From IMG/VR virus record IMGVR_UViG_3300045391_000521: a DNA stretch of 38,307 nucleotides; one strand, written 5' to 3'. Below, piece by piece: positions 6,340-30,923 of the stretch. This stretch comes from a virus. Made by a program: the position numbers and the translations under genes. Numbering within the stretch: position 1 is the first letter of the stretch; every line of letters begins with the position of its first letter. The notes below the pieces were generated by a model, which worked only from the letters and a program-made list of their open reading frames with translations, did not search any database and was not told the DNA's origin.

Positions 6340-6340
6340 C

Positions 6341-16407: not shown

Positions 16408-16480
16408 TCACCGCGCCAGGATTCGAACCTGGGACATCCTGCTTCCAGGGCAGGCACTCTACCAGCTGAGCTACGCGGAG
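16408..16480 (-). tRNA. tRNA-Pro(UGG)-like, atypical anticodon loop
   Basis: Hand-folded cloverleaf: acceptor CTCCGCG/CGCGGTG (U2.U71 mismatch), D arm GCTC-AGCTGGTA-GAGT, anticodon arm CCTGC-CCTGGAA-GCAGG, variable ATGTC, T arm CCAGG-TTCGAAT-CCTGG, A73. C1-G72 plus A73 fit bacterial tRNA-Pro identity. Position 33 is C and position 37 is A. Confidence 0.7.
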
Positions 16481-17167
16481 AAACTGTTGTGGGCGGCCGG
16501 CTGGCAGTTGCCGGCTTACTCAGGTCGCGGCTTTTACTCCTGAGTCGTTTGTTTGAGGTGCCGGCTTTACGGCATCCTTGTCCGCATCAACATGGCGGCG
16601 CATCGCCACTGCGCGTCACCCACACAGAAACCGGCTGGCTTGGTACAAACTGGTTGTGCGGGCTTTCCGTTCAACCGGCTTCTGTGTGGATGCTGGCCCT
16701 TCCCCAGCACGTCCCATCTGGCACAGGCCAGTGGCGTAACCTCCTGCTTGGCCAGGAGGATTTCACGACCTTCCCGCAGTCGCTCACGTCCTCGTCACTG
16801 CTTTCCCTGTGAGGATCAGGGTTCAAATTACCGCCCATTTACCCGTGGGCGGCGCAGGCAGTGTCTGCGACCTGTCGGGGTACACACAAGACTGGCGACT
16901 AGGTGCCGATTCTCACCAATCAGAGCCACCTTAATTGGCTTCGGTCGGGACGATAGCTGGTGGCTTCCGGAACTACCGCCAATCGCCAGACTTGTGGGTA
17001 GTGGCCGAACCATCGCATAAGCTTTCGCCAACACTTGGAATCGAACCATGAGCCACTTGTAAGCGACCAAACCCGCCGGGGATGAGTGGGAAGGAATTGG
17101 GCCTAGCCGCTTACAGGTGGACCCTCGCGAGAGGGTGAGGCCATGGTGTCACATGGCCGTGTTCGTG
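16481..17167 (+). ncRNA. Candidate large structured noncoding RNA locus (class unknown, strand call tentative)
   Basis: No credible ORF. At least 15 helices were found by eye, including long-range closing helices 16620-16634/16675-16689, 16881-16898/16983-17000 and 17053-17065/17108-17120. Six G-T juxtapositions are valid wobbles only on the + strand, against one for the - strand. cUUCGg (16939-16944) and GCGA (17127-17130) tetraloops occur on the + strand. Confidence 0.4.
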
Positions 17168-17509
17168 TCAACCGAATGTTTCGTCGTCGAAGTGGTCGCC
17201 GTAGACGGACCGAACGAATGCGCGCATGCAGGCCTCAAGCGGCGTATCTCCGCTACCTTCGCAGCCGTTGCAAACCGCGTTGAATGTAGCCGATCCATCC
17301 GGAGCATCCAACCGCCACCACGCGTCAATATGCTCCTCGATGATGTGTCCGGCCTGATACCACTGCGTAGACGGTGAATAAGGGTGCGGGCCGCCGTCCT
17401 CGACGATGCAAACGTCCATGTGCTTGCCGATGCTGGCGGTGAAGCCCTGTGCACGGGCGACGGCTAGATCCAGCATGGAGCCGGAAAAGGTGGCTACTTC
17501 TTGGATCAT
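17168..17509 (-). CDS. NinX / DUF2591-like protein (113 aa)
   Basis: Start taken at the internal Met (MIQEVATFSGSMLDLAVARAQGF...) with an ATGA overlap to the upstream gene. The longer ORF-track N-terminus is Arg/Gly-rich shadow sequence. Confidence 0.55.
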   Translation of the reverse strand: MIQEVATFSGSMLDLAVARAQGFTASIGKHMDVCIVEDGGPHPYSPSTQWYQAGHIIEEHIDAWWRLDAPDGSATFNAVCNGCEGSGDTPLEACMRAFVRSVYGDHFDDETFG

Positions 17510-17769
17510 TCTTCCTCCTCCATCTCGCCGCGAGCCATGATCAGCGCCTCGCACTCGACCGCGAACTCCCCGCCGACGGTGCGCACGTCTTCGATGCACG
17601 CCTCGCGCTCGGCCACCATCCCCGCGCGGTAAACGAGCATGATCAGACCCACAATGTCGCCGCGCCACTCGTCCGTGCTGCAGAACTTGTCGTCGATGCC
17701 ACAGCAAGACCGGGTGCGCTTGAACCCCGCCTCCCGCGCCATGCGGATCACGTCGTCTCTCGTCATCAT
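17506..17769 (-). CDS. Hypothetical early protein (87 aa)
   Basis: Start at MMTRDDVIRMAREAGF. The upstream part of ORF 17506..17937 overlaps the tRNA-like element and looks non-coding. Confidence 0.55.
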   Translation of the reverse strand: MMTRDDVIRMAREAGFKRTRSCCGIDDKFCSTDEWRGDIVGLIMLVYRAGMVAEREACIEDVRTVGGEFAVECEALIMARGEMEEEE

Positions 17770-17778
17770 CACTCCTTG

Positions 17779-17856
17779 TGCAGGCGGCCGGAGTCGAACC
17801 GGCGTTACCATCATCAGCGGCGGCAGCACTGGGTAGAGAGGGCCGCTTACGCCCAC
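17779..17856 (-). ncRNA. tRNA-like element or degenerate tRNA (intact acceptor and T arm, possible GCC anticodon arm, no D arm)
   Basis: - strand: GTGGGCG...GCCGG-TTCGACT-CCGGC-CGCCTGC-A. The acceptor pairs 7/7 with two G.U pairs. Possible anticodon stem CAGTG/CGCTG with loop CTGCCGC. The D region does not pair and the variable region is 11 nt. Confidence 0.35.
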
Positions 17857-17864
17857 GTTGATCG

Positions 17865-18023
17865 TTACTCGTTCCACCACTCCGGGCACTTGCCCGTGAT
17901 CCACCATTGCTGGGTTTCTTCCCCTAGTTGCTCCCACGGCGGGTGGATTGACGGGTCTTCCTGGCGGGCGATGCAGGCTTCGTAGGCGGCTTTGGCGTGA
18001 TCTTCGGAGGTCTGGTTATCCAT
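17865..18023 (-). CDS. Hypothetical small Trp-rich protein (52 aa, below the ORF-track cutoff)
   Basis: ATG at 18023 with SD ggggtgagag. Reads MDNQTSEDHAKAAYEACIARQEDPSIHPPWEQLGEETQQWWITGKCPEWWNE. Confidence 0.45.
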   Translation of the reverse strand: MDNQTSEDHAKAAYEACIARQEDPSIHPPWEQLGEETQQWWITGKCPEWWNE

Positions 18024-18026
18024 CTC

Positions 18027-18218
18027 TCACCCCTTCGGAACACACAGCGCACGAACATTGGCAACGAGCTCGCCCACGTTGACGTTGAATTGTCCTTGCG
18101 CCGCCTTCGCTGCGAACATGCAAGCCGCTTTGGTGTCAAACTCTTGTATGGCCAGCGCTACTCCGCCCTTGTTGTAGCCAGTGCTATAGACCGTCAGAAT
18201 TAGAATCCACGCTTTCAT
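18027..18218 (-). CDS. Hypothetical small protein with hydrophobic N-terminus (63 aa)
   Basis: ORF MKAWILILTVYSTG..., tightly packed in the early-left operon. Confidence 0.55.
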   Translation of the reverse strand: MKAWILILTVYSTGYNKGGVALAIQEFDTKAACMFAAKAAQGQFNVNVGELVANVRALCVPKG

Positions 18219-18221
18219 CCC

Positions 18222-18440
18222 TCACCCCTCCCGCCCGGCGCGCTGGGTGGCATCGGCGCGGCGATTCCATTCTTGCACCGCCGCAGCGATCCCGTCATCC
18301 GTGCCGGGATGCCTGCGCACTTCCGGTCCGCGCGCATCACACTCCGGACAGTACAGCGCTATCCAACGATGTGTTGAGCCGTCGCATAGGGCAGGCTTGT
18401 CGTAGCCGCAAAATGGGCATGGCTTTAGCGGTTCACTCAC
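18222..18440 (-). CDS. Lar-family restriction alleviation-like protein (72 aa)
   Basis: LKPCPFCG...CPECD zinc-ribbon pattern typical of Lar family proteins. GTGA overlap with the upstream gene. Confidence 0.55.
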   Translation of the reverse strand: MSEPLKPCPFCGYDKPALCDGSTHRWIALYCPECDARGPEVRRHPGTDDGIAAAVQEWNRRADATQRAGREG

Positions 18441-18664
18441 TCCCCGTCCCCGCCTTCCAACTTTTCGACAGTGATCCGAAACGCCGGCTTGCCATTGTAG
18501 GTAACGATGACCGGCTCGCCGTTGTTGATGACATGTTCAGCGACGGCGCCACACGCTGCGCCAGTCACGTCCGTCTGGCTTGCCCAAGTTACGCCGTCCT
18601 TACACACCGTTCCGGCATAGATGCGGTTGCTGAGCGGACTAGTTGCGATGTGCAGGTTTTTCAT
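18437..18664 (-). CDS. Hypothetical early protein (75 aa)
   Basis: ATG at 18664 overlaps the upstream stop (TGATG). An alternative GTG start lies at 18667. Confidence 0.55.
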   Translation of the reverse strand: MKNLHIATSPLSNRIYAGTVCKDGVTWASQTDVTGAACGAVAEHVINNGEPVIVTYNGKPAFRITVEKLEGGDGE

Positions 18665-18864
18665 CACTCCCCGTCTTCCTGCCGCTGCGCTGTTTTCGCG
18701 TAATGGTCGAAAGGGTCAAAAACCACCCCATCCGTCCGCGTGAGATACACCACCGCCACATGATTCACCTGCGGGTAGCCGGCATCTGTAATACCCGTGA
18801 CTTCACCAGCTCCGACCGGGCTATCTGCGATGGTGTCGCCGATACTTAGGTAATCAGGATGCAT
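18664..18864 (-). CDS. Hypothetical early protein (66 aa)
   Basis: ORF in the coupled gene chain. ATG start at 18864. Confidence 0.55.
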   Translation of the reverse strand: MHPDYLSIGDTIADSPVGAGEVTGITDAGYPQVNHVAVVYLTRTDGVVFDPFDHYAKTAQRQEDGE

Positions 18865-19411
18865 GATCGTCTTCCTGGCGCTGCATGGCGGCGTCTACCA
18901 TCTCGACGCCACGATCAAGCCCGGCATTGAATGACTCTTCGGTTCTAGCCCTGCCAAACTCCGACTCGTACCGGAACAGGGCCTCGTTAAACTTATACGT
19001 CTCAGGGGAATCAATATGCAGCGCGCACCATCGGATTGCCCGCATCCGTCTAGCATCCTTGGCGTCCTGCTCAGGGTGGGGCGTTTGTCCAGCCAGCACG
19101 TACTCGAACATTGCCTTGGCTTGGTCCGCCGTGAATAGGTTCGTGCCGGTGGGCCAGTAAGGAGTGTCGTACTCGTGCACGGCCTTGAACGAGATGCCAG
19201 CGTCCGGGTAAAAATCCTTCGGCAGCTTCCAGCCAAGGAAGCGATTGACCATCGCGCTGATGTCCACCCCGGCATCCGGCTGCGCGGCGAGGGCTGCGGT
19301 CAGGCATTTTGCGAACCGCGAGAAGTTGTCTTCCCAAAGACTAAGCCAACCATCCTGGAAGCCGGCCGCCCGAGCCAGTTCGATGACCTTTTCCGTGCTC
19401 AGCTCATCCAT
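18854..19411 (-). CDS. Hypothetical early protein (185 aa), two domains joined by a PEQDAKDA linker
   Basis: N-terminal VIELARAAGF motif shared with other early genes here. The linker sequence is repeated in 20020..20538. Confidence 0.6.
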   Translation of the reverse strand: MDELSTEKVIELARAAGFQDGWLSLWEDNFSRFAKCLTAALAAQPDAGVDISAMVNRFLGWKLPKDFYPDAGISFKAVHEYDTPYWPTGTNLFTADQAKAMFEYVLAGQTPHPEQDAKDARRMRAIRWCALHIDSPETYKFNEALFRYESEFGRARTEESFNAGLDRGVEMVDAAMQRQEDDHAS

Positions 19412-19643
19412 TCTTCTTCCCCTTGACGATGGTGTTGGCCACCTGGGTCATGGCCCAGTCGAGTGACTTCGCTTCCATCTCGTCCACCACGGCGTCGATG
19501 GACATCACCTCTGCTTCCTCCACGCTGCGGCGACCACCGTTTCGGCCGTACATCAACTTGAAAAGTCGCTGGTTGGACTCCGGCAGCGAGGCCAGGCTCT
19601 CCTTCAGCGACGCCCGCGCGAGCTCCTGCAGTTGCTCGTTCAT
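19404..19643 (-). CDS. Hypothetical early protein (79 aa)
   Basis: Start at the internal Met MNEQLQELARAS, with an ATGA overlap to the stop of 19640..20023. The longer ORF-track version overlaps the upstream gene. Confidence 0.55.
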   Translation of the reverse strand: MNEQLQELARASLKESLASLPESNQRLFKLMYGRNGGRRSVEEAEVMSIDAVVDEMEAKSLDWAMTQVANTIVKGKKNG

Positions 19644-20023
19644 TTCTGCTTCCCCTTCATCGTGATCGGAACGCGGCGAATGGCTCGAGCACGATACATA
19701 TCGTCGTGGGCAACATAGCCATGAAAGCCAATGCTGAAGCTCTTCACCCATACATGGCCAGGAGACGCGATGGATTTTCTCCCACTCCAGTATCGACCCG
19801 GCTGGAATAAGTCCCAGCAATTGGCCATCAGCAATGACAGCTCGCACGGTTCAGGCAGAACCCCACCGACAGATGCCGCCCAAACTACCTGCGTGTCCCA
19901 GTCGGCCGCGTCGGCTTCACTTAGCAGCAGGACCAGATGGTGCGTCGGCGTGCCGGCCTTGTCGAGGATCAGTCCGGCGTAGTGTTCGCCTTCGTTCAAC
20001 GGTGGAATTTCGATTGTGGTCAT
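19640..20023 (-). CDS. DUF1566 (Lcl C-terminal domain)-like protein (127 aa)
   Basis: Pattern LPEPCELSLL...YWSG...RARAIRRV matches my recollection of the DUF1566 signature. Confidence 0.55.
   Translation of the reverse strand: MTTIEIPPLNEGEHYAGLILDKAGTPTHHLVLLLSEADAADWDTQVVWAASVGGVLPEPCELSLLMANCWDLFQPGRYWSGRKSIASPGHVWVKSFSIGFHGYVAHDDMYRARAIRRVPITMKGKQK
19641..19662 (-). repeat. Gene-junction module copy (catttctgcttccccttcatcg)
   Basis: On the - strand: CG-ATGAAGGGGAAGCAGAAATG(A). Encodes the ...MKGKQK* tail plus the SD and ATG of the next gene. Confidence 0.8.
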
Positions 20024-20538
20024 GGCTCCCCCTTCATCGCGAGGGCGGCGCGGTCCAGCCGTTCGATCTCGGCGAGGATAAGGGCGCCGGCTTTGACGAG
20101 ATCGCGGCGCGGATTGGTCGGCTTTAGCCAGGAAATGCTCCAGCTACGCGGCCATATCTGCCATAGAGCCTCCGTTCTACAACCGGCGGCAGATAGTGCG
20201 TAACATGCTGCCGCAACCGCCAACTGCATGGCAGTATGCGCATCGTCGTGCCTAGCCGTCCAACCTTCTGCTGTCACTTGCCGGTGGCGCTCGTCCAGTA
20301 CGTCGGTAGCCCCCTGGCTCAACTCCGCATCCTTGGCGTCCTGCTCGGGCTGGGGCGCCTTGCCGGCCCGCAACCGCGCCAGTTCGTCCGCCACGTCCTG
20401 CGGCACCGTGTAGGCGCGCTGGTTGATGACGACGGTAGCGGACTCGAATACAGGCCGCGCGAGCCTGCTGTATGGGTTCGGGTTGATCAGCATGCTCACA
20501 CCCACCCGAACGGCGCACACATTGCCGGCGTCTTGCAT
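20020..20538 (-). CDS. Hypothetical early protein (172 aa, start uncertain, alternative ATG at 20493)
   Basis: C-terminal part ...AHTAMQLAVAAACYALSAAG...WLKPTNPRRDLVKAGALILAEIERLDR resembles a conserved phage family I cannot name with certainty. Confidence 0.55.
   Translation of the reverse strand: MQDAGNVCAVRVGVSMLINPNPYSRLARPVFESATVVINQRAYTVPQDVADELARLRAGKAPQPEQDAKDAELSQGATDVLDERHRQVTAEGWTARHDDAHTAMQLAVAAACYALSAAGCRTEALWQIWPRSWSISWLKPTNPRRDLVKAGALILAEIERLDRAALAMKGEP
20021..20053 (-). repeat. Gene-junction module copy (variant ...AMKGEP*)
   Basis: catggctcccccttcatcgcgagggcggcgcgg. Shares ccccttcatcgcgagggcggcgcgg with the copy at 20759-20793. Confidence 0.8.
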
Positions 20539-20569
20539 TCTTCCAGGGACCCCTTGCAGATCATGACGC

Positions 20570-20761
20570 TCATTTCTGCTTCCCCTTCATCGCGAAGTCG
20601 TTGCGCTGCTGCTCCCGGATATTCGCGATGTGCAGCACGTCCCAAAGGCATTCGGAATGTTCGACAAGCTCCCGTGCCACCTTCGTGCCATCACGTGTGT
20701 CGTAGGTGGCAGTCAGCGGGTTGTAGAACACCCATGAATTTTGCGTGTGCTCAGAGGCCAT
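20570..20761 (-). CDS. Hypothetical early protein (63 aa)
   Basis: ORF ending in the shared ...FAMKGKQK tail. Confidence 0.55.
   Translation of the reverse strand: MASEHTQNSWVFYNPLTATYDTRDGTKVARELVEHSECLWDVLHIANIREQQRNDFAMKGKQK
20571..20592 (-). repeat. Gene-junction module copy
   Basis: catttctgcttccccttcatcg is identical to 19641-19662. Confidence 0.8.
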
Positions 20762-21929
20762 TCTGCTTCCCCTTCATCGCGAGGGCGGCGCGGGCTTGCC
20801 ATGCAGCCCACAAAGAGGCCGCACCGGGAGCGTCATAGCTAGGCTCGCCGATCCCATCGCACGGCGTCACTTTCCACAATTCGCGCTTGGTTTTGCGCGC
20901 CCATTCCTCGAACGCCTCGCGCTCATCCCCCACGCCGACCGGCTGCGAGGGCGGGGCGGTGTAGAATTCGGTGCCGGTAGGAAGGCTCGTCCAATGCGTG
21001 TGCCAGTGAAGAATTGGGCCATACTCATCCACGCCATCTAGTTTGCACACCGGCTCCTGCGCGTTCGTAACCGAGTCGCACCATGCTCGCTTAGCCGCCA
21101 GATCATGCTGGCACACACGGCAGAAATTCGGTCCGCCGCAGCGCGTCTTGAATCCATCCGGTCGCGGATTGACGTGCCCATGGCCGACGTTCTGGTACTG
21201 AACGCCATTAAGGTTTTCGTACAGCTCTTGTTGGAATTCCGCAGCTTCTTCTAAGGTTGGCAGAGTATCAGCAATTGGCTCCACCCCCGGCCGCCGTTGC
21301 TTCGTCTCGCGCCAGTGGGGTCCGGGCTGACCGATACCAGCACACCTCCAATGCCCGCCGGCCGCGACCCAAGTTTCGTCGAAGCAGTACGGCTCGGACT
21401 CGAATTCGTATTTCTTCCCCTCCGCGTCCGTCGCCGCCCATTCCACCCATTCCGGTGCCTGCGACCAGTCGTAGAGGGGTTGTGGTTGGGTGGGCTGCGC
21501 AGGCTGCACAGGCGGTTGTGGGGCGACGGAGAGCATGGCTTCACGACACGCGTCCCAACCCATTACCCAACAACCGACCTCATCCCATGAAAAGCTCTTC
21601 GGCGCTTTCTCATGCGCGTCCGGCGAACCTAGCATTTTCGGCGGCACCGCTACCGGGCCACCCTGCACGCTGGCGGGGATGGTTGCCAGGATGGCGTCGA
21701 TGTCGATTTCTTCGAACTGGACCTCACCGTCGTTGTAGTCGTAACGCTTCCAGTACCCTGCTCGCTTGGTTGCCTCAGACGCTGCCTCCGCGATCATCCG
21801 ATCCCGCTCGCTCGGCGTGGCCAGGGGCATGGCGTCCGCTACCGCGAGCGCCACGCTGTACGGATCATGCGACTGCTGGACGGCGAGGCGCAGGGCCTCG
21901 ACCAGGGCTTGGGGTGGGGTGCGGGTCAT
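20751..21929 (-). CDS. Hypothetical multi-domain early protein (392 aa, Trp/Cys-rich)
   Basis: Largest early-left ORF. Pro/Gln linker QPPVQPAQPTQPQP. Cys cluster CGGPNFCRVCQHD...C...C. No catalytic motif recognised. Confidence 0.65.
   Translation of the reverse strand: MTRTPPQALVEALRLAVQQSHDPYSVALAVADAMPLATPSERDRMIAEAASEATKRAGYWKRYDYNDGEVQFEEIDIDAILATIPASVQGGPVAVPPKMLGSPDAHEKAPKSFSWDEVGCWVMGWDACREAMLSVAPQPPVQPAQPTQPQPLYDWSQAPEWVEWAATDAEGKKYEFESEPYCFDETWVAAGGHWRCAGIGQPGPHWRETKQRRPGVEPIADTLPTLEEAAEFQQELYENLNGVQYQNVGHGHVNPRPDGFKTRCGGPNFCRVCQHDLAAKRAWCDSVTNAQEPVCKLDGVDEYGPILHWHTHWTSLPTGTEFYTAPPSQPVGVGDEREAFEEWARKTKRELWKVTPCDGIGEPSYDAPGAASLWAAWQARAALAMKGKQNGL
20759..20793 (-). repeat. Gene-junction module copy
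   Basis: cattctgcttccccttcatcgcgagggcggcgcgg. Confidence 0.8.
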
Positions 21930-22111
21930 GCTGCCTTCTCCTTGAACTCGACGTATGCCGTGCAGCTTTCCTTGGCTACTGGCGGTTTGAAATTGGGAGA
22001 CTTGCTGTAGTCCGCCGGCAGCGCGGGCCAGTGATCAGGCTCCCGGTAGCATGCGCACTGCTCGCGGATCGGGCAGCGGCTGCCTTCGCAGGTTGGGGTG
22101 TCCTTGCTCAT
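21926..22111 (-). CDS. Hypothetical Cys-rich small protein (61 aa)
   Basis: Internal Met MSKDTPTCEGSRCPIREQCACY with an ATGA overlap to the upstream HTH gene. Confidence 0.5.
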   Translation of the reverse strand: MSKDTPTCEGSRCPIREQCACYREPDHWPALPADYSKSPNFKPPVAKESCTAYVEFKEKAA

Positions 22112-22314
22112 GGCAGGAATCCTTTGTTCTTCAGCCGCAGCGCCTTGGTCTTGAGCCGGAACAGCTCGAAGGTTGCCGGCTTCATGCCGCGCTCGCCGTT
22201 CTCCCACTTGCGCCAGGTGCGATCCTTCACCCCGACGATGGCGCCGGCTCCAAGTTGCGTCAGCCCCGCATCCATGCGCAGCTGTTTGATCTCGGATGGG
22301 TCGGCGGTCTTCAC
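22108..22314 (-). CDS. XRE-type helix-turn-helix protein (68 aa)
   Basis: IKQLRMDAGLTQLGAGAIVGVKDRTWRKWENGER is a typical HTH_XRE pattern. GTG start with a GTGA overlap. Confidence 0.65.
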   Translation of the reverse strand: MKTADPSEIKQLRMDAGLTQLGAGAIVGVKDRTWRKWENGERGMKPATFELFRLKTKALRLKNKGFLP

Positions 22315-22733
22315 TCGGAGCCCTTCACCTTGGCGATAACCTCGTCGATCTGCTCCTCAGTGATCGGAACGTCATTTCTTGCGCGGTCGCGGATGCCTTC
22401 CAGCGCCGCCAGCAGCTCGTCGCGCTGCTCTTCAAGCCGCTGCCGAACCGGATGGCGCTCGATGGTGTCAGCGCTCGGGTCGATGCATTCGTTTGAAGGA
22501 TCGCAGACTACGACCATTCCATAGACGACACGGGAAATAGAGCCGTGTGCGAGCAGTTCTTGAAGATCTTCAATCAACCGCGCGTATTGCTCACAGTCGT
22601 TGGTGTCGAGGCATTCGATCTCTTCGCCGTTGGTAAACAATGCCGGGAAATGGCCTATCTCGATGTCTTCAAGCACGCTAGCGAGCTTCATCGCCATATT
22701 CAGATCGGCCTCTGAGGCCTTCGCCATTTTCAT
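22311..22733 (-). CDS. Hypothetical acidic protein (140 aa)
   Basis: Start at MKMAKASE with SD gggaggggg. Strongly acidic. Confidence 0.55.
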   Translation of the reverse strand: MKMAKASEADLNMAMKLASVLEDIEIGHFPALFTNGEEIECLDTNDCEQYARLIEDLQELLAHGSISRVVYGMVVVCDPSNECIDPSADTIERHPVRQRLEEQRDELLAALEGIRDRARNDVPITEEQIDEVIAKVKGSE

Positions 22734-22759
22734 TTCTACCCCCTCCCTTGCTGTATCAG

Positions 22760-22776
22760 TGATGCGCCCTGTCACG
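22760..22776. repeat. 17-bp direct repeat flanking paralog A (copy 1)
   Basis: tgatgcgccctgtcacg. Overlaps the stop codon of 22772..23470. Confidence 0.8.
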
Positions 22777-23470
22777 CGGCAACCTCAGAATTGACCGGGT
22801 ACATCGCCCCGATATCCAGCGCATCCCCACAGAACACTTTACGGAACATTTCCTTTTGCGCGTCCCTGGCGGCGTCCCAGGCAGCGTCCCTGGCGGCCCA
22901 GGCGGCGGCACTGGCGGCGTCCAAGGCGGCGGCACTGGCGGCGTCCAAGGCAGCGGCCCTGGCGGCCCAGGCGGCGGCACTGGCGGCGGCACTGGCGGCG
23001 TCCCAGGCAGCGTCCCAGGCAGCGGCCCAGGCAGCGGCCCAGGCGGCGTCCCTGGCGGCGTCCCTGGCGGCGTCCCTGGCGTCCCAGGCGGCGGCCCTGG
23101 CGGCGTCCAGCTCTTCGTCGCTTGCCTCGCCGTTTGCGTGCCGCTCAGCTACGTCCAGCGCATTCAGGCTGCGCGAATCCGTCATCAAGTGCTGCACTTG
23201 GCGTGCGCACCATACCGCGAACAGTCGTTCTGCACGGATCAGCTCTGGCGTTTGCTCGCAGGCCCGAAGCGTCCAAAGCGCGTCCTCCAGACCGTTCGAG
23301 TCAAGGACGAAACCCAACGGAATCGGATCGGCATGCGAAAACAGGATATGCGATTCGCGCTCTTGGTCGGAATCGGTGAACGGCTTACCTTGCAACGCAC
23401 GGACCAGCTTGTTGTAGCCAGACACGCAAGCGCCTTTCGCGCGCAGTGCCTTTAGGGTGGTGGTAATCAC
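22772..23470 (-). CDS. Ala/Trp/Asp/Arg-repeat protein, paralog A (232 aa, GTG start)
   Basis: The first ~124 aa and last ~14 conserved aa are nearly identical to 27205..27807. The central region is (A)AA[WRS][DA] repeats. Confidence 0.7.
   Translation of the reverse strand: MITTTLKALRAKGACVSGYNKLVRALQGKPFTDSDQERESHILFSHADPIPLGFVLDSNGLEDALWTLRACEQTPELIRAERLFAVWCARQVQHLMTDSRSLNALDVAERHANGEASDEELDAARAAAWDARDAARDAARDAAWAAAWAAAWDAAWDAASAAASAAAWAARAAALDAASAAALDAASAAAWAARDAAWDAARDAQKEMFRKVFCGDALDIGAMYPVNSEVAA
22861..23098. repeat. 9/12-nt tandem repeat array inside paralog A
   Basis: Units of type gcc(gcc)(tgg|agg|agt|ttg)g(a|c)c on the coding strand. All six frames are open across it (several overlapping ORF-track entries). 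Confidence 0.85.
23099..23470. repeat. Inverted repeat, left arm (372 bp, pairs with 27205-27576)
   Basis: The reverse complement matches 27205-27576 with 2 mismatches by eye (start codon G/A and the K/E codon). Confidence 0.85.
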
Positions 23471-23489
23471 ATTTACTCCCGGTTGTTAT

Positions 23490-23506
23490 TGATGCGCCCT
23501 GTCACG
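23490..23506. repeat. 17-bp direct repeat flanking paralog A (copy 2)
   Basis: The identical string tgatgcgccctgtcacg lies 20 nt upstream of the paralog A start. Confidence 0.8.
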
Positions 23507-23519
23507 GCGCTGGTGTTGG

Positions 23520-23735
23520 TCAGCCGTCGATGGACGCGATGTAGGCCGGGTCACCAGGGCGCAGGCGCGTTTCCTTCCGCTCTACATCAGCCCGGAAGAA
23601 AATCCACATGTCGGGGTTGGCCATCCACTTGAGGGCCTTGCGCCCCGCGGCTTCCTTGCTTTCTGCCTGCACGTGCTTGAACACGGCATCCATGTCGGAT
23701 GCTCTGCTAGTCAGCTCCACCGTGTATGTCTTCAC
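23520..23735 (-). CDS. Hypothetical early protein (71 aa, GTG start)
   Basis: SD ggaggatgg precedes the GTG. Product begins MKTYTVELTS... Confidence 0.55.
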   Translation of the reverse strand: MKTYTVELTSRASDMDAVFKHVQAESKEAAGRKALKWMANPDMWIFFRADVERKETRLRPGDPAYIASIDG

Positions 23736-23769
23736 AATCCATCCTCCATCACAGCGCCGCGAGGGCGCT

Positions 23770-23991
23770 TTATTTAACGTCTTTCACCCACAATCCGCCG
23801 CGCCAGCAGAACAGGTCTTCCGCGTGGCTTTTCACCTCCGCACTGGCGTTAATTTCGCCGAGATTCGCATGGCGGAATCCGCGCTGTTTGGCGTCCTCCA
23901 CCAACGCTGCAAACTCCGGCGCGGCGATGTATTCGGCATGTGCAACTGCGCGGCGCTCGCGTTCGTTCTGTTCGTGCATGTTGATGGCCAT
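23770..23991 (-). CDS. Hypothetical early protein (73 aa)
   Basis: Internal Met MAINMHEQNERERR chosen. The longer ORF-track N-terminus overlaps the upstream small gene. Confidence 0.5.
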   Translation of the reverse strand: MAINMHEQNERERRAVAHAEYIAAPEFAALVEDAKQRGFRHANLGEINASAEVKSHAEDLFCWRGGLWVKDVK

Positions 23992-24004
23992 TTCGCAAAA
24001 CCCC

Positions 24005-24184
24005 TTACGGGGCCACGCGGGCAAACAACCCTCCGTGTTGCTCCCAGGTGTGGCCATGGGCCAGTGCCATACGGATGGCCGCGTGTTGGGCGTCCGTATG
24101 GCAGTAGGCGACCACGATGTAGGTGGCCACGATGGCCAGAGTTTTGTGGGACTTGATGTTAACGGTGTAGGTGGTCTTGGTCAT
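24005..24184 (-). CDS. Hypothetical small protein (59 aa, below the ORF-track cutoff)
   Basis: ATG at 24184 with SD gggagag. Reads MTKTTYTVNIKSHKTLAIVATYIVVAYCHTDAQHAAIRMALAHGHTWEQHGGLFARVAP. Confidence 0.45.
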   Translation of the reverse strand: MTKTTYTVNIKSHKTLAIVATYIVVAYCHTDAQHAAIRMALAHGHTWEQHGGLFARVAP

Positions 24185-24282
24185 GATCGTCTCTCCCTCT
24201 GCTGCGCTGTGCGCGTTGTTGATGGAGTAATCATAGGCCCATTGGGCCTGTTTGTGGTGACCGTTCGTCGGCTACGGATCGG

Positions 24283-24720
24283 TCAGTCTTTGAAGTTCGT
24301 CCCGGCGTAGCGGCGGTGCAGCTCTTTCGGAAGCTTTTCTCGCAGGTAGCGCACGTGCCGGCAGTTCTGGCACATATCCTCATCGACACGGTTCTTGTTC
24401 CAGGCGTTCGCTGTCCGGACGACGTACATACCGCAATCGCAACGAGCCAACCATTTGGTGCCTGTGCAGCCTTTGGACTTCGCGAGATATCCAACGATGA
24501 CGATCCGGCCGTGGCGTTGCCCAGAGAGGTCGCGAAATCCTGGATTTCGCCTCGTGACCATCGGGATCGGCTGAACCTGCGGGGGAATCTCCCACATCAG
24601 CACACCTTCCCCGATGCAGTTTGAGGGCTTGAGTTTGGGCCCGTCACCAATCACCAGCGCAGCGGTCTTATTCACCGGATGGAGCGCCACGTCTGGCACG
24701 CCGGATTTCAGGTGCTTCAC
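24283..24720 (-). CDS. Hypothetical protein with Cys4 zinc-ribbon-like motif (145 aa, GTG start assumed)
   Basis: GTGA overlap with the stop of 24717..25028. Motif CDCG...CQNC. Confidence 0.5.
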   Translation of the reverse strand: MKHLKSGVPDVALHPVNKTAALVIGDGPKLKPSNCIGEGVLMWEIPPQVQPIPMVTRRNPGFRDLSGQRHGRIVIVGYLAKSKGCTGTKWLARCDCGMYVVRTANAWNKNRVDEDMCQNCRHVRYLREKLPKELHRRYAGTNFKD

Positions 24721-25028
24721 AGCGCCTCCTTCCACAGCGCGCGCACGCGTTCCCACTGCTGCCGGTCCATACCGTCGCCAAGCGGGCGATACTCACTGCC
24801 ACGGGCACGCGCCTCGTCGTCAGCCTTGAACGCCTTCGACAGATCGACCTGCACCTGGGCGCGTACCGTATCGGACAGCGTGCTCCAGTTCTCAACCAGC
24901 CAATCGCACGTTTCGCTGACCGTGTACGTCTGCCGGCCGATGGCGTAGCGCACGGCGTTGATGATGAGGAAGTCCAGCAGCTTCAGCATGTCCTCCTTAA
25001 CCGATTTGATGTCGTCTTGCTCGCTCAC
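24717..25028 (-). CDS. Hypothetical early protein (103 aa)
   Basis: ORF with the motif RYAIGRQTY, in the coupled gene chain. Confidence 0.6.
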   Translation of the reverse strand: MSEQDDIKSVKEDMLKLLDFLIINAVRYAIGRQTYTVSETCDWLVENWSTLSDTVRAQVQVDLSKAFKADDEARARGSEYRPLGDGMDRQQWERVRALWKEAL

Positions 25029-25387
25029 TCCCCGCCCTCCCCTGAGTTGTCATCTGTTGGTTGACTACTGGATTTGCCGATTGCGGCGCCCGCTCGGACG
25101 ATGGCGCGGCGGGTGGCGCGATCTGGATCGTCTCCGTAGTGCGGCTCGGCAACTAACGCCCGATTGTCAATAGACACTACTGCGCTAGCTCCGCTACCCC
25201 ACGGTTCAACACGCATGCGCAGCTTCACCGCCAGCCGCAGCGCGTCGCCGTCGTCCTGCAGCGGGTTCCAGAGCTTCCATACGCCACGGGTTTTGATCTG
25301 AAAAAATTGCCCCGCAGGGATGACGCACCACTGCCATTCGTAGCCCGCCGCCTTCGCCGCCAGCTCCAGCAGTTCGCGATCAGTCAT
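25025..25387 (-). CDS. Hypothetical early protein (120 aa), LLELAAKAAGY-type N-terminus
   Basis: ATG at 25387 with SD gggga. The N-terminal motif is shared with other early genes in this window. Confidence 0.6.
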   Translation of the reverse strand: MTDRELLELAAKAAGYEWQWCVIPAGQFFQIKTRGVWKLWNPLQDDGDALRLAVKLRMRVEPWGSGASAVVSIDNRALVAEPHYGDDPDRATRRAIVRAGAAIGKSSSQPTDDNSGEGGE

Positions 25388-25633
25388 TTTGGATATCCCC
25401 AAGGTGAATTAGCCAGCTCGCGACGTCTGTGCAATCCAATACTCTGATTGTGTATTCATAAAGGGGGGCCGATCTATATTCCCGTGGATCAGCTAAATCG
25501 CCATCTGGCGGAGAAATTGGGCGTCGCACAGTGGCAATGGCCTTATAGCCAACTTAGCGATGCTTCCCCTGTAGTTCCTTCACAAGCCTGTCAAAGGCGC
25601 CCGCTTTGGCTTTCAAGGTTTCTAGATCATCCA

Positions 25634-26173
25634 TCACGCCTCCTCCAGTTGTTTGGCCGTAATGGCCGGATCATGCATGTGCGTCAGGTGACGGCCTTCC
25701 CAACGATGCCTCTCTGCCCATTCGACGGCTCGCATCAGACGCGGGATTGCGGCGCGGCCCAGCTGGTCATCGTAGATGGCGACGAAGGTGTTTAGGATGC
25801 CGAGCTCGGTTGCGTTGGCGCCCCATTTCTTCGTCTTCAGGAACCGCTCCTGAATCGCCCGCAGCTTGAGCGATGCTTCCTTGCACAGCTCGTAGCTGGC
25901 CGATAGCTGGCGTTGCCGCGCCGAGCCGTTCGCGTCAGCCGTCTCGCCGACCAGGTGCGCACAAACCAGGATCGCTGCGCCCATGGTGGCCGAGTTCTCC
26001 AAGGTGAAGCCGCCGAACTGCAACGCGGTCAGCGCGCCGTAGACCTGCCCGATCATCTTGTCGCGCTCCTCAGGCAGCACGAAGCCGGTTCTGGATACGC
26101 GTGCCAATGGTGCCGGCTTGCGCTTTACAGCGCGGCGTTCTGCCCGGTTCAAAGCGGCATCCCCAGCACCCAA
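25634..26173 (-). CDS. Hypothetical early protein (up to 179 aa, start uncertain, TTG in the ORF track)
   Basis: Long ORF with protein-like composition. No motif recognised. Confidence 0.55.
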   Translation of the reverse strand: MGAGDAALNRAERRAVKRKPAPLARVSRTGFVLPEERDKMIGQVYGALTALQFGGFTLENSATMGAAILVCAHLVGETADANGSARQRQLSASYELCKEASLKLRAIQERFLKTKKWGANATELGILNTFVAIYDDQLGRAAIPRLMRAVEWAERHRWEGRHLTHMHDPAITAKQLEEA

Positions 26174-26238
26174 TCCACGAACGCCACCGTCGCGAAGACG
26201 ATGACCACGATACCAAGCATCTCAAGTGCAGTGCGCAT
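26149..26238 (-). CDS. Possible 29-aa single-TM micropeptide
   Basis: ATG overlaps the upstream stop (TGATG). Reads MRTALEMLGIVVIVFATVAFVDWVLGMPL. Confidence 0.3.
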   Translation of the reverse strand: MRTALEMLGIVVIVFATVAFVDWVLGMPL

Positions 26239-26396
26239 CACCGGATCACCCAGAGGTAATCCATCTGCGCACTGCGGTAGCGGGTATACATCAGCGCAGC
26301 GTTCTCCCGGTCGAACTTCTCCGCCCATAGCCAACGCCAGAACGATTTTTCCAGCTCCCACCACATGCGCACGCGGCGCTTGAAACTTGCTTTCAT
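26238..26396 (-). CDS. Hypothetical small basic Trp-rich protein (52 aa, below the ORF-track cutoff)
   Basis: ATGA overlap with the stop of the Cro-like gene. Reads MKASFKRRVRMWWELEKSFWRWLWAEKFDRENAALMYTRYRSAQMDYLWVIR. Confidence 0.4.
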   Translation of the reverse strand: MKASFKRRVRMWWELEKSFWRWLWAEKFDRENAALMYTRYRSAQMDYLWVIR

Positions 26397-26599
26397 GATT
26401 CCTCCTCCCTGCGTGGATACAAGTCCGGACGCACCGTCTCGCGACGTAGGCCCGTCACCGACTCGAACGCTAGCACCCTCTCTGCCGGGACATGCCCGGT
26501 CATATACCAGCGGTGCACAGCTTGTCGCGTTACACCCATCTGCCTTGCCACTTCCGAAATACCGAGCGATTCAATCGCCAGTTTCACTGCTTCTTCCAT
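26393..26599 (-). CDS. Cro / YdaS-like helix-turn-helix regulator (68 aa), first gene of the early-left operon
   Basis: LGISEVARQMGVTRQAVHRWYMTGHVPAERV is a Cro/YdaS-type HTH. Sits right next to the divergent promoter region. Confidence 0.7.
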   Translation of the reverse strand: MEEAVKLAIESLGISEVARQMGVTRQAVHRWYMTGHVPAERVLAFESVTGLRRETVRPDLYPRREEES

Positions 26600-26630
26600 T
26601 GATGAGCCCCTGTTGGTGCCCGGCGATTGA

Positions 26631-26659
26631 ATGATGCACCACTCATCGCATCATGTCAA
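26631..26659 (-). promoter_or_regulatory. Candidate leftward sigma70 promoter (-35 TTGACA, 17-nt spacer, -10 CATCAT)
   Basis: Read on the - strand: TTGACA is the reverse complement of 26654-26659, and CATCAT is the reverse complement of 26631-26636. Confidence 0.5.
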
Positions 26660-26672
26660 CAACGCGTTGACA
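26654..26672. promoter_or_regulatory. Operator-like palindrome tgtcaac-aacgc-gttgaca spanning both -35 boxes
   Basis: Perfect 7-bp arms with a 5-bp spacer. Confidence 0.5.
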
Positions 26673-26695
26673 ACAGACTCACCAATGTTTACGAT
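26667..26695 (+). promoter_or_regulatory. Candidate rightward sigma70 promoter (-35 TTGACA, 17-nt spacer, -10 TACGAT)
   Basis: TTGACA at 26667-26672 and TACGAT at 26690-26695. The first + strand gene starts at 26729 with SD ggaga. Confidence 0.55.
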
Positions 26696-26728
26696 GAACT
26701 CACATCGACAACAACAGCGGAGACGGCC

Positions 26729-26878
26729 ATGTACATCAATCGCAGGAAGCACATCAGGCTCGATAACCCTCGTCTTGACGACTGGCGCAGCCTGATCCTG
26801 GCCATCGCGGCAACGGTGGCGTTTTCGGCGATTGGTGCGGTTGGCCTGTCTCTGCTGGCCTATCCGGGAGTGGCGTGA
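26729..26878 (+). CDS. Small membrane protein (49 aa), first gene of the early-right operon
   Basis: Internal Met MYINRRKHIRL with an SD. TM segment LILAIAATVAFSAIGAVGLSLLA. The ORF-track N-terminus would lie upstream of the predicted transcription start. Confidence 0.5.
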   Translation: MYINRRKHIRLDNPRLDDWRSLILAIAATVAFSAIGAVGLSLLAYPGVA

Positions 26879-27195
26879 TGATTATCGACTGGGACGACAT
26901 GAAGGTGCCGGCATACAAGGCCTATCAGAATCCGGAGCAGACCGAAGAGCAACGCGAGGAACACATGCGCAACCTAGTCCAGAAGGAAGCCAGCCGCCTG
27001 CTGGAAGACGCGGAAGGCATCGGCGAGCTGCTGGGTGAAGTGTTCTTCGATCCGAACGCAGAGCGCGCGCTCTACAGCCTACTGGCCAGCATCGCGACGG
27101 CGCCGGATCGCGAACTAGTGTCATCCGAGCTGCACAATTTTCTGCACTTCCACGCCCAGCGCGTGGCCGACATTAACGTCGATCGTCAACAGTAA
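26878..27195 (+). CDS. Hypothetical acidic early protein (105 aa)
   Basis: ATG overlaps the upstream stop (TGATG). An alternative GTG start lies at 26875. Confidence 0.6.
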   Translation: MIIDWDDMKVPAYKAYQNPEQTEEQREEHMRNLVQKEASRLLEDAEGIGELLGEVFFDPNAERALYSLLASIATAPDRELVSSELHNFLHFHAQRVADINVDRQQ

Positions 27196-27204
27196 GGAAA
27201 CCCC

Positions 27205-27576
27205 ATGATTACCACCACCCTAAAGGCACTGCGCGCGGAAGGCGCTTGCGTGTCTGGCTACAACAAGCTGGTCCGTGCGTTGCAAGGTAAGCCGTTCACC
27301 GATTCCGACCAAGAGCGCGAATCGCATATCCTGTTTTCGCATGCCGATCCGATTCCGTTGGGTTTCGTCCTTGACTCGAACGGTCTGGAGGACGCGCTTT
27401 GGACGCTTCGGGCCTGCGAGCAAACGCCAGAGCTGATCCGTGCAGAACGACTGTTCGCGGTATGGTGCGCACGCCAAGTGCAGCACTTGATGACGGATTC
27501 GCGCAGCCTGAATGCGCTGGACGTAGCTGAGCGGCACGCAAACGGCGAGGCAAGCGACGAAGAGCTGGACGCCGCC
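27205..27576. repeat. Inverted repeat, right arm (372 bp, pairs with 23099-23470)
   Basis: See the left arm. A further 40-nt identical block lies at 27739-27778 versus 22810-22849. Confidence 0.85.
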
Positions 27577-27807
27577 TGGGACGTCGCCAGGGCCGCCGCC
27601 TGGGACGCCAGGGACGCCGCCAGGGCCGCCGCCTGGGCCGCCTGGGCCGCCGCCTGGGCCGCCAGGGCCGCTGCCTGGGACGCCGCCAGGGCCGCCGACA
27701 GGGCCGCCAGGGCCGCCGACAGGGCCGCGCATAAAGACATGTTCCGTAAAGTGTTCTGTGGGGATGCGCTGGATATCGAGGCGATGAGCAAGAAGGTGGA
27801 GGCCTGA
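27205..27807 (+). CDS. Ala/Trp/Asp/Arg-repeat protein, paralog B (200 aa)
   Basis: Near-identical N-terminal 124 aa to 22772..23470 (K12E). Shorter central repeat region. Conserved MFRKVFCGDALDI near the C-terminus. Confidence 0.75.
   Translation: MITTTLKALRAEGACVSGYNKLVRALQGKPFTDSDQERESHILFSHADPIPLGFVLDSNGLEDALWTLRACEQTPELIRAERLFAVWCARQVQHLMTDSRSLNALDVAERHANGEASDEELDAAWDVARAAAWDARDAARAAAWAAWAAAWAARAAAWDAARAADRAARAADRAAHKDMFRKVFCGDALDIEAMSKKVEA
27577..27729. repeat. 9/12-nt tandem repeat array inside paralog B (shorter, different unit order)
   Basis: gccgcctgggac / gccagggcc / gccgacagggcc units, about 85 nt shorter than the array in paralog A. Confidence 0.85.
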
Positions 27808-27808
27808 C

Positions 27809-28273
27809 ATGGACAAGAAGAAGTTGGAAGAGCTGAAGGCGCTGGCGGAGAAGGCAATGCCGGGGCCGTGGAGATCGGTAGGCGGCGCTATTTGCATTCG
27901 CTCAGCCAATGTTTCGCCTCGCGGGCGCGAGTTGTGGATAGGGGATGCCGGGCATGCTACCGCCGCCTTCATCGCTGCCGCCAACCCGACCACCGTCTTG
28001 GAGATGATCGAACAGAATGAAGAGCTGCGAGAGGCGCTAAAAGCACTACGCTCGGTGTGCTTCGACTGGCGCAAAACGCTTGATGAGTTCGAGCGGCTTG
28101 GTGAGCTGTATTACCAAGAATTCAGACGGCTGCGCCCCGGCAAAGACGATCCTTTCCGGGATTCGAACGAGCCGGAGAACATCAAGCAATACGATGAATG
28201 GGCGCGGAAGCGCAACGAGGATGCAATTGACCGCGCTGATGCCGCCCTCGCCAAGGCAGAGGGGGACGCATGA
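27809..28273 (+). CDS. ead/Ea22-like family protein (154 aa)
   Basis: The N-terminus LEELKALAEKAMPGPW is characteristic of Ea22-like phage proteins. Confidence 0.6.
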   Translation: MDKKKLEELKALAEKAMPGPWRSVGGAICIRSANVSPRGRELWIGDAGHATAAFIAAANPTTVLEMIEQNEELREALKALRSVCFDWRKTLDEFERLGELYYQEFRRLRPGKDDPFRDSNEPENIKQYDEWARKRNEDAIDRADAALAKAEGDA

Positions 28274-28371
28274 CCCGTCACCCCCTTCTCCGCGAACTTG
28301 CCCTGCGCATGCTGGGCGCTCTACTGGTGGTCGCCGTATGGGCCATCGCGATGTCCCTTGTTAAGGATTGA
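28270..28371 (+). CDS. Possible 33-aa single-TM micropeptide
   Basis: ATGA overlap upstream and TGATG overlap downstream. Reads MTRHPLLRELALRMLGALLVVAVWAIAMSLVKD. Confidence 0.35.
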   Translation: MTRHPLLRELALRMLGALLVVAVWAIAMSLVKD

Positions 28372-29582
28372 TGATGCTCAAGAAAGCAACCAACCGCATG
28401 GCCTATGCAAAGGTCGGCATCTACGGGACAGCTGGTTCCGGTAAAACCCGCACTGCGACGGAGATCGCCATTGGGCTGCACAAGGCAATCGGCAGCAAGA
28501 AGCCCATCGCGGCGTTTGACACGGAGCCTGCATTCAGTTTCGTCCTTCCGCTCTACGAGAAAGCCGGGATTGAATTGCTCGTAGCTGATGAAAGCCGAGC
28601 CTTAGCCGATCTGATGAAGTTTATGGATGAGGCTGAGAAAGTAAGTGAAATCGTCATCATCGATAGCATTACGCATGTATGGCGTGATGCGCAGGAGAGC
28701 TATCTAGCGCGCCTGAACAAGTCACGCAAAGCGGCCGGTAAACGTCCTCTTCCTGCACTGGAGTTCCAGCACTGGCGTCCAATCAAGGCGGCATGGGCTG
28801 AGTTCACCGACCGTTTCTTGTCCTCCAAGATGCACGTCATCGTCTGCGGGCGGGCCGGCAACGTCTACGAGTACCAGGACAAGGACGATGGCTCCGGCAA
28901 GAAAGAGCTGATCAACACCGGCACCCGCATGGCTACCGAGAAGGAGCTGGGCTACGAACCGAGCCTGCTAATCGAGATGATCTCGGATCGAGTTGAAGGC
29001 CGCATCATTAATACCGCGCTGATCCAGAAAGACCGGACGGACAGGCTGAATGGCCGAGAGATCCAGATGCCGAACTACGGCAAGCTGGAGTCACACTTCA
29101 AATGCCTGAACATCGGCGGCCAGCACTTCGACAGTATGGACCAGCGCAACTCCGAATCCTTGTTCCCGGAGGCCAACGAAAGTGGCTGGGACTCCGAAAC
29201 GCGGCAACGCACCATCTATGCGGAGGAGATCGGCGAGCTACTGAAGAAGCACTTCCCAAGCCAATCGGTGGAGGACAAGCAGCGCCGCATGGATCTTCTG
29301 GAGCAAATCTTCCAGACCCGTAGCTGGACGCGCGTTGAGGGCCTAAACAGCGATTTGCAGAAGGCTGGGCTGGCTGCCCTTCGCGACGCTCTGGAGCCGC
29401 GCGGCGAGGTCGAAATCGCCGTCGATACGGTAAAAGACCGCATCTGCGCCTCCCCCAATATGGACGTCCTCGACATGGCCGCCGATATGATCCCGCAGAT
29501 CATGGGTGACGATGATCGCCAGGCACTGCAAGAGCTGTACGAGGCTCGAAAGAAGGAATTGCTGGGCGACGTGCCGCAATAG
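28371..29582 (+). CDS. AAA/RecA-like ATPase (phage nucleotide-binding, Sak4-like N-terminal domain, about 403 aa)
   Basis: Walker A GTAGSGKT. Hydrophobic strand plus Asp (IVIIDS) as Walker B. Lies in the recombination/replication block. Confidence 0.65.
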   Translation: MMLKKATNRMAYAKVGIYGTAGSGKTRTATEIAIGLHKAIGSKKPIAAFDTEPAFSFVLPLYEKAGIELLVADESRALADLMKFMDEAEKVSEIVIIDSITHVWRDAQESYLARLNKSRKAAGKRPLPALEFQHWRPIKAAWAEFTDRFLSSKMHVIVCGRAGNVYEYQDKDDGSGKKELINTGTRMATEKELGYEPSLLIEMISDRVEGRIINTALIQKDRTDRLNGREIQMPNYGKLESHFKCLNIGGQHFDSMDQRNSESLFPEANESGWDSETRQRTIYAEEIGELLKKHFPSQSVEDKQRRMDLLEQIFQTRSWTRVEGLNSDLQKAGLAALRDALEPRGEVEIAVDTVKDRICASPNMDVLDMAADMIPQIMGDDDRQALQELYEARKKELLGDVPQ

Positions 29583-30470: not shown

Positions 30471-30550
30471 GTAAATACGCTAAGATATTCGCGCTAGCCT
30501 TTATCATTGGCGCGGTATTCCATTACCTGACGGCGCCATTGAATGGCTGA
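30467..30550 (+). CDS. Possible 27-aa TM micropeptide
   Basis: ATGA overlap upstream, and its stop overlaps the rusA start. Reads MSKYAKIFALAFIIGAVFHYLTAPLNG. Confidence 0.3.
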   Translation: MSKYAKIFALAFIIGAVFHYLTAPLNG

Positions 30551-30923
30551 ACTGTTCGTTCTCCCATTCCCGCCAAGCGCGAATCACTATTGGCGCCATC
30601 CTGGTAAAGGCCCGCTGGCAGGACGGCATCTGATCAGTGAGGAGGGCCGGCAGTACCGATTCGATGTGCACGTTGCTGTCTTGCAGCAACGCGTCAGGCG
30701 ACAGAAACTGACCGGTTCGATTTCCATCGACATTGCCGCCAACCCGCCAGACAAGCGGCGGCGCGATTTGGACAACATGCTAAAGGCATTGCTCGACGCT
30801 TTGACGCATGCTGGCGTGTGGGACGACGATAGCAACATTGATGAACTCTCCATCCGGCGTGGGAAAGTAGTGTCGGGAGGGCGCATCAGCATAGCAATCA
30901 GAGCAAATGGGGTTGTTGAATAG
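30543..30923 (+). CDS. rusA: RusA-family Holliday junction resolvase (126 aa)
   Basis: Motifs LPFPPSANHYW and RRDLDNMLKALLDAL are typical of RusA. Confidence 0.85.
   Translation: MAELFVLPFPPSANHYWRHPGKGPLAGRHLISEEGRQYRFDVHVAVLQQRVRRQKLTGSISIDIAANPPDKRRRDLDNMLKALLDALTHAGVWDDDSNIDELSIRRGKVVSGGRISIAIRANGVVE

Follow-up and report, generated by a model that had tools for sequence, protein, structure and literature searches.

When two nearly identical genes lie in inverted orientation on either side of a phage's early control region, does the segment between them flip, or does the pair record a more ordinary kind of recombination? This question is raised by IMG/VR virus record IMGVR_UViG_3300045391_000521, a contig of 38,307 nucleotides (nt) from a short-read metagenome, referred to below at its full length as the window. 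Each of its two divergent early operons carries one member of phrog_18326, a phage protein family without assigned function, and the original prediction held that crossover between these paralogs would invert the segment that they enclose. The structure described here is rated as a real and rare feature with a conventional origin, namely paralogy combined with gene conversion. With a probability of roughly 60%, the two genes represent distinct alleles whose N-terminal domains have recently been homogenised by gene conversion, inversion of the enclosed segment being a near-neutral by-product and not a programmed switch. A regulatory flip-flop is unsupported.

Comparison base by base confirmed the near-identical inverted pair, with 372 nt and two mismatches in the repeat (99.5% identity). 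The first mismatch falls in the start codon, which is GTG in the left copy and ATG in the right, and the second, at position 34, distinguishes AAA from GAA (K11E, left versus right); the 124 codons of the repeat contain no synonymous difference, and positions 35-372 form a perfect core of 338 nt. A repeat search delimited the arms at 23034-23469 and 27206-27641 (436 nt, 97% complementary, 3736 nt apart), and a megablast search within the window returned the paralog pair as its sole internal repeat besides a 69-nt terminal overlap. An inverted repeat of this kind is far beyond chance. The gene map also agrees with the predicted layout of one copy in each divergent early operon.

The borders of this identity are as informative as its extent. 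Identity between the paralogs begins at the start codon, the leaders upstream being unrelated. Near the 3' ends, the reported 40-nt identical block (ATGTTCCGTAAAGTGTTCTGTGGGGATGCGCTGGATATCG) proved to be real, the alignable 3' block as a whole shows about 6 differences over about 72 nt, and the last 9-12 codons are unrelated. A Fisher test of the 5' repeat against a wider 84-nt stretch at the 3' end gave p=6e-11. The left copy is in addition bracketed by a 17-nt direct repeat, CGTGACAGGGCGCATCA, which has two exact matches in the window, a count of at least two being reached in 0 of 100 shuffles even when 3 mismatches were allowed. No flanking direct repeat of at least 9 nt was detected around the right copy. 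The 17-nt repeat resembles an insertion scar or the edge of a cassette, and it could allow the left copy to be lost precisely. As for the downstream junctions, the stop codon of the left copy lies in a GTGA overlap with the GTG of the next open reading frame (ORF), and that of the right copy ends 1 nt before the next ATG.

From the observed repeat, its borders and the uneven divergence around it, we infer gene conversion as the cause of the near identity, and a sequence of events can be proposed. The phage would carry two alleles of one accessory early gene, one per divergent early operon. These alleles, which differ in leaders, arrays, 3' blocks and C-terminal tails, would be of different origin or separated by an old split, and the left allele would be a cassette placed between the 17-nt direct repeats. 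Their N-terminal coding halves would then have been made identical in recent times by non-reciprocal homologous recombination, in a conversion tract that extends from the start codon, at which homology stops, to the repeat array. The inverted repeat of 372-436 base pairs (bp) left by this process would act as a passive substrate for host RecA or for the phage's own Sak4-like and RusA proteins. Occasional crossovers would invert 23471-27204 and yield a second genome isomer, presumably viable and rare, in which all genes still read away from a promoter. Inversion would thus be a by-product, probably a nearly neutral one. The coordinates of all features concerned are collected in Table 1.

Table 1. 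Positions of the paralogs, their repeats and the associated control and recombination genes in the window
Feature	Position	Strand or direction	Remarks
Left paralog, 232 amino acids (aa), GTG start	22772..23470	-	Leftward early operon; full-length phrog_18326, E 3e-46
Right paralog (P0001), 200 aa, ATG start	27205..27807	+	Rightward early operon; identical gene with the same flanks in contig L001
Left repeat arm, N-terminal domain codons 1-124	23099..23470		2 mismatches/372 nt, positions 1 and 34
Right repeat arm, N-terminal domain codons 1-124	27205..27576		Partner of the left arm
Left tetrapeptide array, 83 residues (AAWD/AARD/AASA/AALD units)	22859..23107	-	12-nt period, some 9-nt units; direct-repeat family D1
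Right tetrapeptide array, 54 residues	27568..27729	+	Indel differences from the left array; direct-repeat families D2 and D3
Left 40-nt block	22810..22849	-	Within conserved C-terminal motif MFRKVFCGDALDI
Right 40-nt block	27739..27778	+	Identical to the left block
17-nt direct repeat CGTGACAGGGCGCATCA, upstream copy	23490..23506	-	Perfect; brackets the left paralog
17-nt direct repeat CGTGACAGGGCGCATCA, downstream copy	22760..22776	-	Overlaps the stop codon of the left paralog
Segment between the arms, 3734 nt	23471..27204		10 leftward genes, 2 rightward genes and control region; invertible by crossover
Cro/YdaS-like helix-turn-helix gene, first of the leftward operon	26393..26599	-	PF15943 YdaS_toxin, E 2.6e-12; P22_Cro, 2.3e-5
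Divergent sigma-70-like promoters	26631..26695	leftward 26659 to 26631; rightward 26667 to 26695	Each 10/12 consensus positions
Sak4-like (AAA_24) recombinase/annealase	28368..29582	+	Downstream of the right paralog; phrog_1366, 2e-44; phrog_124 'Sak4-like', 5.6e-10; PF13479, 5.6e-11
RusA Holliday-junction resolvase	30543..30923	+	PF05866, 2.2e-17

The family context of the pair was examined in a survey of 210 loci carrying a gene of this family, 139 of which are at least 5 kb long. Most loci (189 of 210) and all 22 isolate phage records hold a single copy. The remaining 21 loci are multi-copy, with up to 6 copies, all on the same strand and mostly adjacent; an inverted pair split between two operons was seen in this genome only. 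Locus L042 (10001-12800) carries four tandem copies whose N-terminal domains share 93.5-100% nucleotide identity and whose arrays differ, one of them consisting almost entirely of AAWD units, and further tandem sets comprise 5 copies in L068 (3409-7000) and 6 copies in L150; in all, such sets in other phages and prophages number 3-6 copies. Tandem sets with near-identical heads and differing arrays suggest rapid in-frame slippage and concerted evolution throughout the family, and concerted evolution of the head beside variable arrays is, as judged from these sequences, a family trait. Both gene contexts recur in other phages: the family gene precedes a homolog of the left paralog's neighbour in L021 and L024, and a Sak4-like gene with 77% identity in L027 and L028. 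Searches for close relatives of the region itself were negative. A megablast search of 22000-28500 against 50,697 phage records gave only a 50-nt match, to BcepC6B; an exact 36-nt repeat probe had no match in the viral and metagenome contig collections, which do not include this phage; and no close relatives were found through the 179-aa inner gene or DnaB.

With respect to inversion, the predicted geometry is right. The Cro/YdaS-like gene, both divergent promoters and the palindrome TGTCAACAACGCGTTGACA (26654-26672) are all located between the paralogs, as had been proposed, and the operons diverge from a control region of 129 nt. These two promoters are the only promoter-like sites in 22000-28500, and the palindrome supplies both -35 boxes, one per arm. 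After a crossover, the 10 promoter-proximal leftward genes would precede the right array gene, Ead, Sak4 and the replication and packaging genes, and the 2 proximal rightward genes would precede the left array gene and the accessory/Lar operon. The exchange of promoter-proximal cassettes therefore stands as geometry, and no inverted isomer has been seen. The further suggestion that each promoter would come to drive a different gene set holds in principle, but its effect may be small, because both -35 boxes belong to one palindrome. The chimeric repeat-protein genes that inversion was expected to create turn out to be trivial, since the crossover falls in identical sequence and the products would differ from the parental proteins at residue 11 only. 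Inversion by general recombination is plausible, because a perfect inverted core of 338 nt coincides with a phage Sak4-like recombinase, RusA and host RecA (for the biology of Sak4, see PMC5928155). No match to recombinase, invertase or integrase families was obtained among the ORFs scanned with Pfam, PHROGs, NCBIfam and PADLOC, some small ORFs lying outside the scan. A programmed invertase of the Gin/Cin/Hin/Pin type was accordingly rejected as a candidate: no recombinase of this kind was found among these ORFs, and the repeat consists of 372-436 nt of coding sequence instead of short crossover sites.

The physical reality of the repeat can be judged from contigs assembled independently. A Joint Genome Institute (JGI) contig from another sample, L001, corresponds to window positions 25291-27908 with 1 mismatch and spans the whole right copy, flanked as in the window. 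The Logan contigs of SRR12692950 and SRR12692973 are 100% identical to the window, and their breaks lie exactly 30 nt (k-1, k=31) within the repeated blocks. The end of both L008 and L009 is at 23440 and that of L134 at 27235, and L135 begins at 22839, within the 40-nt block. SRR12692950 reproduces each of the four repeat borders with 100% identity, and the inner segment 23471-27204 is fully covered at 100% identity by L008 and L134. Links from inner to outer flanks across the 338-nt core are provided by the two JGI assemblies only, both of which depend on how the assembler resolved the repeat. As a side observation in SRR12692950, the break between L008, which ends at 25683, and L134, which starts at 25695, falls inside the 179-aa gene, at a place where the window has no repeat; a local polymorphism or reduced coverage could explain it.

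An assembly artefact, either a merger of two co-occurring one-copy strains or a misassembly that produced the repeat, would be understandable given that the source contig comes from a short-read metagenome, that the 338-nt perfect core exceeds usual k-mers, and that the left-copy protein as read here is absent from the protein collection. It is nevertheless highly improbable and was rejected, because contigs of three other datasets reproduce every repeat border; the Logan contigs break at exactly k-1 within the repeats, L001 runs through the right copy, both copies are intact, in frame and abut their downstream ORFs, and the contig itself is circular, with a 69-nt overlap, a coherent gene set and a portal ORF that closes across the junction. 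A single recent event with no ongoing exchange, either insertion of the left cassette or one copying of the 5' half from the right gene, would agree with the scar-like 17-nt repeat around the left copy, with the lack of synonymous differences in the repeat and with the single-copy state of most relatives. A simple recent duplication of the whole gene is ruled out as the full story, however, by the diverged leaders, 3' blocks and tails, which it leaves unexplained, and a one-off partial copy amounts in practice to gene conversion and is inseparable, with one genome, from the favoured reading; as a separate account, a single event is rather unlikely. For the same reason, the original claim of ongoing gene conversion is upheld in part: the uneven divergence supports recent recombination, but 'ongoing' cannot be distinguished from one event.

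A true flip-flop, with both orientations of 23471-27204 present at appreciable frequency through homologous recombination and with a possible consequence for regulation or replication, is tentative and, on balance, unlikely. It gains from the long, nearly perfect inverted repeat with its signs of recent homogenisation, from the presence of phage recombination genes and from conceptual precedents in other systems (PMC9731477; PMC3147054). Because every gene would still share its orientation with a promoter after inversion, viability can be expected of both isomers. Inverted repeats of comparable size are also rare, 1.70 Mb of related loci having yielded one of at least 150 nt, only 90.7% identical, and the arrangement is thus not a common background. 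Set against this, all three contigs with the right-hand gene encode the parental protein, in which E11 is joined to the right array; the chimera of K11 with the right array was not found in a collection of 15 billion proteins, as checked through cluster membership, the 90% cluster of the right-copy protein having a single member. The window and L001 agree in orientation, nothing about an arrangement unique among 210 loci and 22 isolate phages suggests selection, and little phenotype would be expected from a shared palindromic operator region and a change of one residue. The available evidence argues against a frequent or selected flip. Quite improbable is the more specific proposal of two interconverting isomers, in which Sak4-like/RusA or RecA would flip the early control cassette and exchange promoter-proximal modules between the accessory/anti-restriction operon and the recombination, replication and packaging operon. 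Such a phage would have a recombinase-free means of inversion made from a duplicated early gene, of a kind not known to have been reported in tailed phages. More speculatively, and by analogy with the yeast 2-micron plasmid and its double rolling-circle amplification, a replication fork might be redirected by a flip that takes place when the fork has passed only one of the repeat copies. A literature search for flip-flops of phage early regions returned nothing relevant beyond analogies in other systems.

The preferred account, homogenisation of two distinct alleles by gene conversion, has points against it as well. The order of events (insertion, conversion) is read from one genome, because no close relative was found, and conversion that is still going on would leave the same picture as one recent copying of the 5' half. 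The three contigs are a thin sample, and the isomer question was judged from assembled contigs and protein clusters. Contig orientation hinges on the assembler's path through the 338-nt perfect core; gene and strand logic is equally consistent with both orientations and cannot choose between them, because either keeps every gene reading away from a promoter. The orientation of 23471-27204 here, and in similar short-read assemblies, should therefore not be taken as settled. Even without flipping, the pair records recent recombination within one phage genome. If the segment does flip, it would provide a simple natural case, in a tailed phage, of two genome isomers without a dedicated invertase, and would show that paralog homogenisation can reorganise an early control region.

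The proteins themselves belong to a well-populated family. Both paralogs are full-length members of phrog_18326, with the left one matching profile positions 2-194 of 203 over residues 1-217 (E 3.1e-46). The family comprises about 5000 homolog clusters, mostly from prophages of Burkholderia, Bordetella and Achromobacter and from metagenomes, and isolate phages with the gene include Bcep176 (gp36), the Pseudomonas phages AF and PPpW-3, and Erwinia phiEt88. Alignments of 36 members revealed a conserved head of about 124 residues with invariant positions C15, G18-Y19-N20, W66, R82, C88, R90, D98 and E109, a hypervariable alanine-rich AAWD/AARD array, and a C-terminal AQKEMF..C.G motif; the C-terminal tails of both paralogs resemble genuine family tails. 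Confident AlphaFold models of the left and right copies (predicted local distance difference test scores of 89.9 and 90.2, respectively) consist of a helical head followed by a hairpin, formed by helices 118-161 and 166-213 in the left copy and 118-150 and 154-184 in the right. The array is thus predicted to form an antiparallel helical hairpin, whose arms measure about 31-33 residues for the right copy and 44-48 residues for the left, and the pattern of array lengths in these models suggests a variable-length binding or ruler module. Viewed in this way, phrog_18326 is a very abundant early-gene family in which an in-frame tetrapeptide minisatellite sets the length of the predicted hairpin, and it is worth testing for host-takeover or anti-defence activity.

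Searches for a known function of the paralogs gave little. No Pfam match was obtained at E<=0.01 and none by sequence in NCBIfam, PADLOC or PDB, and the fold search returned no significant PDB match. Foldseek against BFVD gave a weak match to one predicted viral structure, A0A6J5RNF9, annotated as 'Imm-5-like domain-containing protein' (E 8.5e-3; template modelling score 0.47; root-mean-square deviation 3.4 over 137 columns; 25% identity). Neither copy matched Imm5 or Imm5_like (PF14423/PF21805), and, among 36 family members, PF21805 was touched by a single one (E=0.51). No toxin domain was present among the neighbours in general scans, which did not include a search aimed at toxin or polyimmunity loci. 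An Imm5-like function was not adopted, the structural match being weak and to a predicted viral structure only, and the profile tests not confirming it. Separately, a family homolog in Curvibacter phage P26059A (KY981271.1, 64394-64756) is annotated as 'tail fiber protein', a label that is probably a mis-annotation arising from the alanine-rich repeats.

The phage genome is complete and circular at about 38.24 kb, its terminal overlap consisting of positions 1-69 and 38239-38307, and a portal-sized ORF of about 700 aa crosses the junction (from 36513, wrapping to about 401), so that the listed ORF 75-401 is merely its C-terminal end. Judged from sequence features, the genome type is that of an SU10-like podovirus. 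Structural genes (scaffold, major head, SU10 adaptor, tail fibre) occupy 1-17000 on the + strand. The leftward early operon, at about 17100-26600, includes NinX-like, Lar restriction-alleviation, DUF7446 and XRE helix-turn-helix proteins, the Lar-type and NinX-like genes lying at 18222-18440(-) and 17168-17707(-). The rightward operon, from 26729, includes Ead/Ea22, Sak4-like AAA_24, RusA, O-like initiator, DnaB, TerS and TerL. No integrase or CI-type repressor was found among the ORFs scanned.

Several observations on gene starts and junctions may be useful for annotation. In the mechanical ORF list, the starts of 22311-22775(-) and 26627-26878(+) are probably too far upstream. The left paralog's neighbour most likely starts at ATG 22733 (140 aa, MKMAKASE..., ribosome-binding site (RBS) GGGAGGGGG), as called in L135 and in agreement with the homolog in L024. 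For the first rightward gene, 26729 is the most likely start (49 aa), in line with L001 and L134, which gives the control region its length of 129 nt. Protein look-ups with corrected starts (105 aa, 140 aa) obtained matches; exact-protein look-ups with the 232-aa left copy, the 154-aa and 106-aa neighbours (uncorrected starts) and the Ead/Ea22 gene had no match. Direct repeats of 30-36 nt occur at 20024-20060, 20577-20613 and 20764-20800, with a weaker copy at 20083-20112. They are located at the 3' ends of four consecutive leftward genes, whose products all end in ..(A)LAMKG(K/E)(Q/P).., and form a conserved gene-junction sequence that holds an RBS-like AAGGGG and overlaps the next start codon; this junction repeat may be a module-boundary or translational-coupling element.

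How the locus relates to known inversion systems can be seen most clearly by comparison. The G segment of phage Mu and the C segment of phage P1 are inverted by the dedicated serine invertases Gin and Cin, which act at short crossover sites with the aid of an enhancer and switch tail-fibre genes. Like these, the present segment is part of a phage genome, is bounded by inverted repeats, and would on inversion re-pair constant and variable gene parts; unlike them, it has yielded no such recombinase, its repeat consists of 372 bp of coding sequence, and re-pairing would leave the proteins almost as they are. The tandem phrog_18326 clusters in L042, L068 and L150 share with the pair the same domain layout, near-identical N-terminal domains and arrays of differing length. 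They differ from it in that the copies in all 21 multi-copy loci are on one strand and mostly adjacent, inversion and division between early operons being peculiar to this genome.

A broader parallel is offered by plastid genomes and the herpesvirus HSV-1, in which general recombination at long inverted repeats generates isomers and the repeat copies evolve in concert (PMC3147054). Their repeats span kilobases and their isomers are roughly equimolar; here, no isomer has been seen. The nearest counterpart is the flip/flop (FF) region of yeast chromosome XIV, where re-inversion is driven by the homogenised inverted Centroid paralogs YNL018C and YNL034W, the repeat measures 4 kb, and both orientations are documented within and between species (PMC9731477). 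The phage locus differs in its repeat of 0.37-0.44 kb, its setting in a 38-kb phage, its bracketed early promoters and the single orientation seen. Like the FF region, it consists of inverted paralogs from a fast-evolving, duplicating family that are near-identical, in the phage probably through gene conversion, and bracket a segment invertible by ordinary homologous recombination. With the plastid, HSV-1 and yeast systems alike, it shares a long, near-identical inverted repeat flanking a unique segment, a far greater similarity within the repeat (2/372 nt) than in adjacent homologous sequence (~6/72), and recombination machinery at its disposal, in the phage the Sak4-like/AAA_24 protein and RusA as identified by homology.

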